In this document: piece by piece, positions 51,498 through 52,573 of the stretch
Layout of the letters: the number at the start of each line of letters is the position of its first letter
Position numbering within the stretch: position 1 is the first letter of the stretch
Origin: a virus
Lineage: Duplodnaviria; Caudoviricetes
DNA: 64,000 nt
Reading direction: 5' to 3' (one strand)
Virus record (IMG/VR): IMGVR_UViG_3300031555_010877
Coordinates: 1 to 64,000 of that record
Program-made: the position numbers and the translations under genes
Notes under the pieces: model-generated
What the model saw: only the letters and a program-made list of their open reading frames with translations
Databases searched by the model: none
Told to the model about the DNA's origin: nothing

Positions 51498-52573
51498 TTA
51501 TTCCTTTTTATTCAAATTAAAAACAGCCGGATTTTCATCTGGCTGTTCATTGTATTCATCAAGCATTTTCCAACGAAACTTTCGGTCTGTTGGCACAAGT
51601 CCTTTATCTTCTAATTCAAATCTTTTATCAAAATGATGGACAGTGATACCTCCAGGTTTAAAACTTACAGGACTATCCAAATCCCACTTGAGTAATATCT
51701 GCCATAAATCTGGATAATTCTTGCGTAGCTTCCTCAATTGGTCTACACCTTGGTTATGACAAAACCAACATCCACCACGCTGCGCTTCTGTATAAATTGG
51801 GGAGAGAAGATTGTTATCGGCACACCATTTTCTGCAATATGCTTCATCCCAACCCATTTCTACAAGAGGTAATTTGATATCAGATTTTATACTATGACGG
51901 GCAATACGTTCTGGTTCATCAGCAGCAATGCCCAAATATTGCACAATATTTATATCTGCACCTTGTGCAATGGTGCCGTCTAAAAACACTGGTCTTGAGG
52001 CTGGTACACCAATTTCCTCGTTTGATTGAAATTGGAAACCCGTAGGGCAGAGGTTTTGAGCTGGCTTGTACACCATTGTCCTTTGAGCATTGGGAAGCCC
52101 CATATATCTGCTCCATACCCCCTCACGGAGGTTTTCTTGCGATTCGGTACTCGATAAAAACATTTTTCGTAAGTCAGCTTCTCGAGACATTGATTGCAAG
52201 ATGTTGGATTTGAGTCTACTTGTGCACCACGCTCCAACAGCATATGGGAAGCCATAGATACGTCCAGCATTTCTGCCTTCATTAATGTAGGTATAGAATT
52301 GCTTTTCGTAAGTGAGCTTGTACTCTCTCTCTCTCTCTCTCTCTCTCTCGGTCTCGCACATACGTGCTCGACCACAATACCATATTTTTCTTTAATTATT
52401 TCATCTGCTTTACGTTTGAACTCTACCATTGGTGGTAAATCTGCCGGAATTTCATCAGTAGCCCAAACATCTGCAGTTATAATACGGTCAAGAGGCCATC
52501 CTAATTGCTTTATAGCTTCAAGCATAGCAAGACTGTCTTTACCATAGCTTATAGAAGCAACATATTGTGTCAT
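51498..52573 (-). CDS. PAPS-reductase-like (PP-loop) protein split across frames by a (GA)13 microsatellite, with three tandem internal modules
   Basis: SYGKDS PP-loop in ORF 51980..52573. YLGIAADEPER and RGGCWFC in ORF 51498..52361. Loss of one GA unit gives 357 aa. Confidence 0.8.
52323..52349 (-). repeat. (GA)13G dinucleotide microsatellite
   Basis: (CT)13C on the plus strand, inside a coding region. Confidence 0.97.

Follow-up and report, generated by a model that had tools for sequence, protein, structure and literature searches.

The gene described here, found in a stretch of 64,000 nucleotides of phage DNA (the window in what follows), carries three diverged modules with the motif GFP..WC..LK, one per reading frame by three-frame translation, between an N-terminal PP-loop segment and a common C-terminal domain (C-domain). 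We consider it probable that this layout works as a frame-multiplexed cassette switch, in which a repeat (SSR) would pick the module to be translated and a slip on a U-run followed by a pseudoknot would restore the frame of the C-domain. This reading draws on the anatomy of the locus, on its conservation in related viral loci, on the avoidance of stops and the selection for own-frame coding in the module array, on the variability of the SSR among relatives and on the covariation of the pseudoknot.

Architecture of the locus

The gene lies on the minus strand (52573-51498), and its features are listed below together with the two genes that follow it. Frames are named after the C-domain, C+0 being the frame of that domain and C+1 the frame one base after it.

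52350-52573, minus strand: N-terminal PP-loop segment, with ATG at 52573-52571 and SISYGKDS at about 52555-52532 (ORF list, three-frame translation)
52323-52349, minus strand: SSR1, (GA)13.5, setting the frame for the module array (TRF)
52209-52319, minus strand: module A, complete, with head KLTYEKQFY and tail GFPYAVGAWCTSRLK, in frame C+0
52055-52180, minus strand: module B, complete, with head KLTYEKCFY and tail GFPMLKGQWCTSQLK, in frame C+1
52118-52122, minus strand: G5 tract inside module B, between head and tail
51994-52047, minus strand: tail C (PYGFPISIKRGNWCTSLK), in frame C+2, 58 nt after tail B
51980-51986, minus strand: U5 run (51986-51982) overlapping TAG (51982-51980), the candidate frameshift site
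51939-51976, minus strand: H-type pseudoknot, from covariation in the 37-junction alignment A1
51498-51944, minus strand: common C-terminal domain (VQYLGIAADE ... RGGCWFC ...), with stop TAA at 51500-51498
50354-51491, minus strand: C5-cytosine DNA methyltransferase, downstream (PF00145, E 8e-33; TIGR00675, E 2.3e-26, below cut-off)
49220-50341, minus strand: radical-SAM-like gene, downstream in the same operon (phrog_9298, E 4.9e-44)

The start codon at 52573 stands in frame C+1, the same frame as module B, and SISYGKDS occupies residues 7-14 of the ORF that begins there, while module A shares the frame of the C-domain ORF (51498-52361). Reading is open across 52573-51980 in the frame of the start codon and across roughly 52400-51498 in that of the C-domain, and only the frame of module A continues without a break into the C-domain. 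A preliminary description, made from the letters of the window, had placed the PP-loop N-terminus, the (GA)13 tract and modules A, B and C in three frames of the minus strand, and all of these are confirmed at their coordinates. It was also right that, with the assembled (GA)13, the ribosome reads module B; it had missed both the TAG at 51982-51980, which ends this ORF at 197 aa before the C-domain, and the U-run and pseudoknot beside it. Three-frame translation agrees with its account of the neighbouring repeat lengths: (GA)12 would yield an ORF of 357 codons, with module A in frame and the full-length protein of 357 aa made directly, as would (GA)15, and (GA)14 would hit TAA at 52284-52282.

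The frame of tail C holds five stops between (GA)13 and the junction and becomes open only at the G5 tract (52122-52118); from there to the U-run all three frames are open. The length of (GA)n alone therefore cannot reach tail C, which, as far as translation of the three frames can tell, would be reachable only via a change in the length of the G5 tract. The earlier proposal that the repeat chooses the module is supported in its core; in the window (GA)n yields two module states, A or B, and a dead frame, in place of three.

The gene sits in a DNA-modification and replication module. Pfam and NCBIfam searches gave no match for the radical-SAM-like gene. The methyltransferase is split by a G8 tract (51435-51428) into a 30-aa head ORF (51399-51491) and a body ORF (50354-51472), which G7 would fuse; the strain of run X8, about 98% identical to the window and with 7 substitutions in a stretch of 718 bases, has an interruption in this tract and 1 nt less, which would put the gene in frame. 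As in genes of the phasevarion type, we thus have a homopolymer-interrupted ORF with a tract whose length differs between strains.

Enzyme family and predicted fold

The gene product is, by profile matches and fold models, predicted to be a phage PP-loop-fold enzyme of the family that PHROGs names PAPS reductase (phrog_424). Its N-terminal segment matches phrog_424 at E 5.1e-08, its C-domain matches phrog_424 at E 2.7e-23 and phrog_28782 at E 1.8e-24, and a PP-loop motif (SGGxDS-like) is present, whose S, G, K, D and S hardly vary across the family alignment. The family comprises 1718 representatives at 50% identity, with E up to 0.001. Since the curated PAPS-reductase profile (Pfam PF01507 or NCBIfam) is unmatched and phrog_424 of PHROGs alone matches, we do not file the gene as a CysH-type PAPS reductase. 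Searches of Pfam-A and NCBIfam gave no family for the cassette ORFs of the window or for the relatives P0082, P0004 and P0023, and a search of PDB chains with the P0082 sequence gave no match.

The AF2 model of P0082, a single-module relative of 267 aa, reached pLDDT 93.1 and pTM 0.88, and its Foldseek matches were TtuA, MnmA, LarE, NcsA and CysH (E 9.6e-05 to 3.5e-03), with target-normalised TM-scores of up to 0.52 (CysH, 1sur). In the AF2 model of P0004, a natural full-length relative, the first module is placed in the canonical helix, and residues 139-230, which comprise the later modules and off-frame readings, have pLDDT <50. The PP-loop motif and the fold are common to the cassette enzyme and the PP-loop ATP pyrophosphatases (TtuA, NcsA, MnmA, LarE, CysH), whereas the C-terminal GCWFC region sets the cassette enzyme apart from them. 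The modules had been taken at first for probable target-recognition segments, a view that the family alignment does not bear out: they carry the invariant G, P and W of the family together with its nearly invariant C, L and K, and so look like an active-site segment of the enzyme.

Staggered modules among relatives

Among 236 candidate stretches in viral contigs, 232 encode relatives. By counts that rest on a regular expression of our own making, 2-4 frame-staggered modules together with an SSR are carried by 53 of the 58 related viral loci for which both gene ends were found. The spacing of 58 nt between late tails recurs in these relatives, each of the three tail types is also found in relatives with a single module, where it stands in frame, and the off-frame GFP..WC..LK motif is kept across loci that are only 66-80% identical.

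The distribution of stops follows the modules. For 38 distinct loci, module-bearing frames are free of stops from the SSR to the U-run in 89 of 90 cases and module-less frames in 2 of 16 (C+1, 0 of 2; C+2, 2 of 14), and the B frame of the window has no stop from (GA)13 to the U-run. In the 53 multi-module loci the alternative frames hold 0.062 stops per codon in the N-domain and 0.056 in the C-domain, against 0.016 across the arrays in all three frames. Furthermore, when only codons outside the fixed motif are counted, variation in the C+1 and C+2 modules peaks at the third position of their own codons (for instance 0.532 versus 0.354 and 0.260, and 0.347 versus 0.231 and 0.114). The selection for dual coding that the preliminary description had suggested for the window thus finds support in its relatives, and so does its core idea that repeat slippage selects the module without recombination, given that the staggering, the SSR and the avoidance of stops all recur there. 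The reading of the array as a decayed duplication is contradicted by the recurrence of the layout in the homologues, by the avoidance of stops in module-bearing frames and by the covariation of the pseudoknot.

With near-duplicates included, the N-terminus of the 52 cassette-bearing loci stands in C+0 in 14, in C+1 in 19 and in C+2 in 19. An even split of this kind is also expected from neutral drift among ON and OFF states.

Repeat tracts and their length variation

TRF reports a period-2 array at 52323-52349 with 13.5 copies and 100% matches. It lies between the N-terminus and the modules, inside the coding region, where the number of units sets the frame as it does in SSR contingency loci. 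Only two long SSRs are present in the 64-kb window, this dinucleotide tract, which the scan gives as (CT)13 at 52323-52348, and the C8 at 51428-51435, and both sit in one operon, that of the cassette gene. A perfect dinucleotide repeat of 27 bases is atypical as a product of sequencing error.

At the equivalent position the relatives carry (GA/AG)4-19, G6-10 or C8-10. Variation in repeat length, anticipated from the window, is frequent among them: the SSR differs in 21 of 38 locus pairs that are at least 98% identical outside it, and three loci (L006, L016 and L018) that are 100% identical outside the repeat carry (AG)9, (AG)10 and (AG)8, hence three different frames. The RGGCW codons of the C-domain served as a control; they form a G8 tract in most of 16 aligned loci and, as read by eye, show no difference in length.

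Exact 29-base flank scans of metagenome and viral contigs found no other copy of the window phage, and BLAST against phage records gave one weak match, covering 8% of the query at 71.8% identity. Logan contigs break off inside the (GA)n tract in 4 of 4 runs, which, for contigs, is a weak hint only. In the strain of run X8 the tract of module B is G7 as opposed to G5, with CC inserted behind 52117 (plus strand). The place of the G5 tract is taken in relatives by a further SSR, either G6-9 or (GA)n, and L031-L033, L062 and L066 are such loci with two SSRs. G5 itself is a short tract and poorly mutable.

The junction with the C-domain

The U5 run begins on a codon boundary of the C frame, and a T-run of at least 4 in this same phase is found at 39 of the 39 junctions that have a T-run, of 44 distinct junctions listed; the run is absent from L064, L069, L073, L076 and L077. 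A canonical X XXY YYZ heptamer (GGGTTTT or CCCTTTT) stands in the C+1 zero frame at 14 of the 39. The junction of the window reads UGU UUU UAG, and since the codon before UUU is UGU, only single-tRNA slippage at the stop codon would be possible there.

Downstream of the run, after a spacer of 5-6 nt (5 nt in the window), comes the first stem of the pseudoknot. In the window, stem S1 pairs 51976-51972 with 51962-51958 and stem S2 pairs 51970-51963 with 51946-51939, the 3' arm of S2 falling in the codons for I-V-Q at the start of the C-domain. On alignment A1, with its 37 distinct junctions, 97.1% of cells are paired and 8 of 13 pairs show compensatory changes, whereas none of 500 shuffles reaches any of the measures and slid controls are 32-53% paired; a single S1 pair (46-60) occurs as UA in 16 junctions, CG in 12, AU in 4 and GC in 4, without mismatches. 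Constraint on the nucleotides is also evident from third positions of the C frame, which are variable at 59 of 65 in the N-domain and 116 of 130 in the C-domain, and at only 11 of 54 in the codons from T2 to VQY. The cassette of U-run and pseudoknot is present at all 37 aligned junctions and absent in 9 of the 9 single-frame (single-module) relatives that were further checked, and the off-frame ORFs stop about 0-30 codons past the U-run.

What is seen at the junction, an in-phase slippery run with a covarying structure 5-6 nt downstream, is what characterises a -1 frameshift signal, and the U-run and pseudoknot likely serve to shift ribosomes by -1, or perhaps -2, into the reading frame of the C-domain. 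As to the latter, for a U6A heptamer PMC3458567 reports that -2 shifting works best when the spacer falls 1-2 nt short of the one for -1; a ribosome arriving in C+2 sits 1 nt closer here, which would match that shorter -2 spacer.

Proposed mechanism and alternative explanations

Under the cassette switch, heritable and stochastic slippage of (GA)n would set the frame in which the ribosome crosses the module copies, and the G tract in module B would slip as well, more rarely. Because successive copies are staggered by +1 frame, each entry frame would decode one copy properly, the remaining copies being read out of frame as a harmless disordered linker. With (GA)12 or (GA)15 the ribosome would read module A and pass straight into the C-domain. 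With (GA)13 it would read module B and then meet the U5 run overlapping the TAG, with the pseudoknot 5 nt ahead, where tRNA-Phe would slip -1 onto the C-frame UUU and give a full-length enzyme with module B, non-slipping ribosomes leaving the truncated product of 197 aa. For tail C to be read, the G tract would have to change by +2 and the same U-run would have to allow a -2 slip. A ribosome that arrives in the C frame would have no way to slip back, given that the first base of the U-run falls on a codon boundary of that frame. What we infer here is the frameshifting, with its efficiency and its -2 route, together with differences in activity or specificity between the modules. Against the switch stand the presence of the canonical tandem-slippage heptamer at only 14 of 39 junctions, the UGU before UUU in the window, the shortness of the G5 tract, the even split of N-terminal frames and the need of the C+2 route for a -2 (or +1) shift, of a kind that is rare in bacteria.

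Could the gene be an ordinary ON/OFF contingency gene, in which only the (GA)12-type state makes enzyme and B and C are relics of duplication? The C-domain is indeed entered only by the frame of module A, the offsets between N-terminus and C-domain (14/19/19) are about even, as neutral OFF states would be, and the adjoining methyltransferase is a plain SSR-split gene. Yet relics would neither keep an off-frame GFP..WC..LK motif across loci of 66-80% identity nor concentrate their variation at third positions of their own frame, it is exactly the module-bearing frames that are stop-free (89/90 versus 2/16), and the in-phase U-run with its covarying pseudoknot, confined to multi-module loci, would be left unexplained, so that we hold this explanation to be unlikely. 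Distinctly unlikely, in our estimation, is a selection of frames that works without frameshifting, in which the B and C states would be truncated proteins of ~190-200 aa, for example regulators or inhibitors, and the pseudoknot would serve pausing, mRNA stability or downstream translation. The ends of the off-frame ORFs, about 0-30 codons past the U-run, and the extent of nucleotide conservation to about these ends would fit such products; however, a PP-loop fold deprived of strand 4 (VQYLGIAADE) and of the GCWFC region, with their invariant residues, is unlikely to fold, the phase of the U-run, the 5-6 nt spacer and the pseudoknot closely match a -1 frameshift signal, and 14 of 39 junctions have the canonical heptamer in the very frame whose -1 is the C frame.

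It is very improbable that we are dealing with a decaying pseudogene, or with an artefact of assembly or sequencing at the repeats. The gene is split in the assembly and contigs break at the repeat, but dozens of independent viral contigs share this layout while differing in the type of their SSR, stop avoidance, covariation and own-frame codon bias point to function, and 27 bases of perfect dinucleotide repeat are not a typical sequencing error.

Several other candidates were tried and rejected. A split enzyme, with its C-domain made by internal initiation or termination-reinitiation, would have strand 4 (VQYLGIAADE) out of frame in the B and C states, and the SD-like AAGGTG/AAGGAG, which belongs to stem S1, has its nearest ATT or GTG 11-14 nt away. 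Switching by deletion or recombination of 58-nt units would, by arithmetic, still leave the last tail out of the C-domain frame. For a +1 frameshift at the rare AGA/CGG codons after the tail, a conserved signal is lacking across loci; an intrinsic terminator is unfit on either strand, the T-run preceding the hairpin; and quadruplet decoding by an odd tRNA (54648-54723) found no in-frame four-base word that gives a sensible product.

Comparison with known systems

The cassette switch as proposed has features in common with SSR contingency loci and phasevarions, namely an ORF that contains a hypermutable repeat, a heritable and reversible change of frame and a setting among DNA-modification genes. 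In the cases described so far, the off-frames of such loci are simply OFF or lead to a truncated or alternative C-terminus, whereas those of the cassette gene stay open, each of them encoding another version of an internal, essential segment. SSR-truncated Type I hsdS genes with altered specificity (e.g. NgoAV), invertible hsdS shufflons and diversity-generating retroelements give, as is proposed here, several variants of a protein per locus in a clonal population; these systems work by truncation, recombinases or reverse transcriptase, and none is known to store alternative internal segments in three frames of one stretch.

The futC gene of Helicobacter pylori reportedly combines a poly-C tract with a dnaX-like -1 frameshift cassette, that is, a frame-setting SSR and a restoring -1 frameshift signal in one gene, as in our proposal. 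In contrast, futC is not known to have alternative cassettes and its frameshift reportedly only softens the OFF state, while the frameshift site proposed here would collect frames carrying different modules, with a pseudoknot as its stimulator. Phase variation by poly-C is confirmed by published papers for the H. pylori fut genes. Classical -1 frameshifting, as in the phage tail assembly chaperone G/GT and dnaX, has the same elements, namely a slippery run and, 5-6 nt beyond it, a stem-loop or pseudoknot; unlike these signals, which give a fixed ratio of two products per genotype, the signal of the cassette gene would receive an entering frame that varies and would rejoin it to the C-domain. 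'Corrective' frameshifting that compensates an indel figures as a recognised class in PMC5009743. Our literature search found no published description of the three-frame cassette architecture, and the main text of the GeneTack paper mentions neither PAPS nor phosphoadenosine.

Implications

If true, the cassette switch would join microsatellite phase variation and programmed frameshifting in one device, two parts that are each known separately and that reportedly occur together once, in H. pylori futC. One gene would thereby give several full-length enzyme variants and an OFF state, with neither a recombinase nor a reverse transcriptase being required, and this would give protein diversity a new route and triple-frame coding a new use. 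It would also explain why many 'frameshifted' genes of metagenomic phages are not pseudogenes; 38 of the 52 cassette-bearing loci would be annotated as broken.

More tentatively, we picture the gene as a prokaryotic-virus counterpart of alternative exon choice, in which up to three or four versions of an active-site segment would be laid down in three frames, selected in a heritable but reversible way by the length of a microsatellite and rejoined to the C-domain by a -1/-2 slippery site with a pseudoknot. Sub-lineages carrying variants would then always be present, possibly with different DNA or nucleotide modifications to set against host restriction. As the family is found in DNA-modification modules of gut phages, such a switch may bear on the escape of phages from restriction.

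Organization of the cassette gene

The window covers the opening 64 kb of an IMG/VR virus record of 124,692 bases, which is classified as a provirus with an estimated completeness of ~90%. The window's long ORFs are nearly all on the - strand, and the cassette gene is present in one copy; the stretch occurs in sequencing runs from feces and gut metagenomes.

Features of the cassette gene and its surroundings
52573 to TAG 51982-51980, - strand: N-terminal ORF with the PP-loop motif SISYGKDS, 197 aa
52349-52323, - strand: perfect (GA)13.5 tract (TRF)
52122-52118, - strand: second tract, reduced to G5
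51498-52361, - strand: C-terminal ORF in another frame, VQYLGIAADE ... RGGCWFC, 287 aa
53230-55439: eight tRNA genes

When frames are counted as offsets in nucleotides from the C-domain frame, module A (modules being GFP..WC..LK segments with a head and a tail) lies in C+0, module B and the start codon in C+1, and tail C in C+2. Three-frame translation found three modules, one per frame, where the preliminary description had placed them, and its arithmetic was right: (GA)12 gives 357 codons and (GA)14 runs into TAA 52284-52282. A 53-aa ORF (52573-52734, - strand), the stop of which overlaps the start codon of the PP-loop gene at 52573, had no family match in Pfam or PHROGs.

Staggered modules across the family

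Of 4897 candidates from a word-seeded protein search, 4395 proteins matched at E of at most 0.001. Apart from the gene itself, the best matches shared 51-61% identity over 88-100% of the 287-aa ORF, the "out-of-frame linker" included, with modules and linker peptides as in the window. A full HMMER scan with P0082, a single-module relative, gave 1718 representatives at 50% identity, many being N-only or C-only pieces. Relatives were confirmed in 232 of 236 candidate stretches and 80 viral-contig loci were fetched, which we scanned and counted with motif expressions of our own making. The strict C-domain motif failed in 14 of the 80, partly single-module loci and partly multi-module loci with one motif substitution; after 9 of the 67 sources with the C-domain motif were dropped, the N-terminal motif being absent from the fetched DNA, 58 sources with both motifs remained (57 loci and the window).

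Two to four modules were present in 53 of these 58 sources and one module in five. In the multi-module loci the module frames are staggered, late tails lying 58 nt apart, i.e., 19 codons plus 1. A simple sequence repeat (SSR) of (GA/AG)4-19, G6-10 or C8-10 precedes the first module, separates modules, or is found at both places. In all loci the C-domain is in frame with just one module, the first to follow the SSR, and the other module frames close ~0-30 codons past the last tail. In four-module loci, which carry two SSRs, the N-terminus is followed by SSR1, complete module 1, head 2, SSR2, the three tails and finally the C-domain, a plan that the window fits with its second tract cut to G5. 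Judged from these sequences, the staggered architecture is a family trait and not a local accident.

Probable translation of the off-frame modules

Three tests, namely stop avoidance, codon-position bias and single-module relatives, agree in indicating that the off-frame modules are probably translated. Stops were counted per frame between the last SSR and the junction in 38 distinct loci, and 89 of 90 module-holding frames were stop-free; the single exception is the window's tail C read from (GA)13, a frame which is open from G5 onward. Frames holding no module were stop-free in 0 of 2 cases (C+1) and 2 of 14 (C+2), with up to 8 stops, against a background in alternative frames of 0.062 stops per codon in the N-domain and 0.056 in the C-domain. 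L030 and L066 account for the two module-free C+2 frames without stops, and in L030 a third tail with one substitution had been missed by the motif.

If C-frame reading alone mattered, position 2 (C+1) or position 1 (C+2) should be the most variable. At codons not fixed by the motif, modules in C+1 and C+2 instead varied most at their own third position, in groups that are partly saturated and include non-orthologous modules: 0.532 vs 0.354 and 0.260, and 0.638 vs 0.551 and 0.550, with further groups at 0.498 vs 0.354 and 0.372, and 0.347 vs 0.231 and 0.114. Moreover, every tail type is found in some single-module relative as its sole in-frame module, for example GFPIQRGQWCTSDLK in P0082, GFPMQKGNWCAKLK in L069 and GWPFQRGPWCNSRLK in L064.

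Repeat-length variation

SSR length differed in 21 of 38 pairs of loci with at least 98% identity outside the repeats. Three loci at 100% identity (L006, L016 and L018) have (AG)9, (AG)10 and (AG)8, that is, all three frames, and L042 to L049, 98-100% identical, carry G7, G8 or G9. As a control, the RGGCW codons form a G8 tract in most of 16 aligned loci, with no length difference seen by eye.

This C-domain G8 (AGG/CGG GGG GGG TGT in the RGGCWFC codons) was noted in L020, L039, L042-L050, L010, L029 and L026; by eye it does not change in length among aligned loci, unlike the G tract preceding the first tail, and it is avoided by L013 and the window.

For the window's own phage the evidence of SSR variation is thinner than for its relatives. 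Logan contigs stop within the GA tract in 4 of 4 runs, the repeat being masked by the tool, a weak hint of an assembly-graph branch. A close strain in one run (X8) differs by 7 substitutions over 718 bases, and its G5 tract has two more bases, i.e., G7. The same strain has one extra base at window position 51531 (+ strand), in the last ~12 codons of the PP-loop gene, which would change the extreme C-terminus.

The junction between modules and C-domain

From the second tail to the N-I-V-Q-Y codons, a 16-locus alignment showed near-invariant nucleotides even at 66-72% overall identity. Third positions of the C frame were variable at 59 of 65 sites in the N-domain, 116 of 130 in the C-domain and 17 of 18 in the first tail, but at only 11 of 54 in this stretch.

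Junction elements in the window
51986-51982, - strand: U-run
51976-51972 with 51962-51958, - strand: first stem, S1
51970-51963 with 51946-51939, - strand: second stem, S2

A T-run of 4-6 bases begins at a C-frame codon boundary, 42 nt upstream of the VQY codons (39 or 45 in a few loci; 43 or 46 if a T5 begins one base early). It was in phase in all 39 junctions with a T-run, out of 44 distinct junctions listed, and was absent from L064, L069, L073, L076 and L077. The canonical X XXY YYZ heptamer (GGGTTTT or CCCTTTT) occurs in 14 of the 39, with its zero frame in C+1 and its -1 frame that of the C-domain. A G+C-rich first stem of 5 bp follows 5-6 nt past the T-run. Its middle pair is UA in 16 cases, CG in 12, AU in 4 and GC in 4, with zero mismatches, and these changes couple the third position of a Gly codon with the first position of a codon eight codons upstream. 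The second stem tested joins the loop (TTGCACAA) with the I-V-Q codons (TTGTGCAA). Across the complete H-type pseudoknot, pairing held in 97.1% of 476 cells, with compensatory changes in 8 of 13 pairs; none of 500 shuffles matched any of five measures, and slid controls were 32-53% paired. A T-run followed by a G+C-rich stem was found in none of the 9 single-frame relatives checked.

Protein fold and gene neighborhood

Sequence searches of Pfam, NCBIfam and PDB gave no match to the PP-loop protein. In PHROGs it hit phrog_424, "PAPS reductase", at E 5.1e-08 with the N-terminal ORF and at 2.7e-23 with the C-terminal one. The model of P0082 (267 aa, 35-sequence alignment) reached pLDDT 93.1 and pTM 0.88, and its Foldseek matches were TtuA, MnmA, [4Fe-4S] LarE, NcsA and CysH (E 9.6e-05 to 3.5e-03). 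Since these are PP-loop enzymes, we assign the protein to that fold but do not classify it as a CysH-type PAPS reductase. The family alignment shows invariant G, P and W in the module and nearly invariant C, L and K, and therefore the module counts as an essential segment of the enzyme; GIAADE and GCWFC are conserved likewise. A PP-loop enzyme lacking strand 4 and the GCWFC region would probably not function.

Neighboring genes in the window
C5-cytosine methyltransferase (PF00145, E 8e-33)
Radical-SAM-like gene (phrog_9298)
Exonuclease (phrog_284)
51428-51435, - strand: G8 tract splitting the methyltransferase gene 51491-50354

In the assembly the methyltransferase is divided into a 30-aa head ORF and a 372-aa body ORF, which G7 would join; in X8 two substitutions break up the tract, which is also 1 nt shorter. 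The gene looks like a phase-variable phage methyltransferase, and besides this G8 and the GA tract the 64-kb window contains no long SSRs. Neighbors of the relatives vary and include methyltransferase-like and radical-SAM-like ORFs (ORF starts, by inspection). In L070 (2623-4509, 629 aa) and L074 (2623-4407, 595 aa) a single-module PP-loop ORF continues into MetK-like (SAM synthetase) sequence; this join, a fusion or read-through, hints at a SAM-dependent pathway.

One tRNA (54648-54723, - strand; Rfam tRNA, 44.1 bits) is given a four-base anticodon (gcat) by ARAGORN; in its sequence a 5-bp stem carries an anticodon loop of 8 nt (cagcataa). An eight-membered anticodon loop is the hallmark of +1 frameshift-suppressor tRNAs; no link between this tRNA and the cassette gene was found.

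Proposed mechanism and known systems

The U-run is read as Phe in each of the three frames (..VF; ..GF or ..CF; ..FS or ..FL). From C+1 the tRNA-Phe could re-pair one base back and from C+2 two bases back, and C+0 ribosomes would make no backward slip because the base before the U-run is non-U; the site would thus gather ribosomes into the C-domain frame. In the assembled state, module A would be crossed out of frame and module B then read, until UGU UUU is read with UAG in the A site. Termination there would leave 197 aa, and a -1 slip would instead continue as UUA GAC GGC ... (L-D-G-T-I-A-Q-G-A...) into the C-domain. In the window such a slip would have to be single-tRNA slippage at a stop; a tandem-slippage heptamer is present in only 14 of the 39 junctions. 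Shifting by -2 is unusual in bacteria. With U6A heptamer reporters, the -2 optimum fell at a spacer 1-2 nt shorter than that for -1 (PMC3458567), which fits the window, where a C+2 ribosome would be 1 nt closer.

In the AF2 model of P0004, a relative that naturally encodes a full-length protein with four modules, the first module occupies the canonical helix, and residues 139-230 have pLDDT <50 and no secondary structure, which suggests that the enzyme accommodates the out-of-frame readings as a loop. The N-terminus was in C+0 in 14, C+1 in 19 and C+2 in 19 of 52 cassette-bearing loci, near-duplicates included, which shows that all frame states persist in nature, a split that neutral drift would give equally.

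The separate parts are known, i.e., SSR contingency loci, phasevarions and -1 frameshift signals with pseudoknots, and a poly-C tract and a -1 frameshift cassette reportedly occur together in H. pylori futC. We know of no described system in which alternative versions of one internal protein segment are stored in all three frames of a single stretch, selected by SSR length and then reconnected through frameshifting, and full-text literature searches returned none. "Corrective" frameshifting is a recognized class (PMC5009743), poly-C switching of H. pylori fut genes is confirmed in open papers, and the main text of the GeneTack survey does not mention this enzyme family.

The preliminary description had proposed that repeat slippage chooses the module translated. 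That principle stands, its state map for the window does not hold in detail (the B frame ends at TAG 51982-51980), it lacked the element of frame return, the junction with its U-run and covarying pseudoknot, and its target-recognition role for the modules is conjectural; its observation is confirmed and its interpretation partly supported. On the sequence evidence as a whole, we consider it fairly probable that the gene is a three-frame cassette switch, set by the SSR and completed by a frame-collecting frameshift site, and this is our best explanation.
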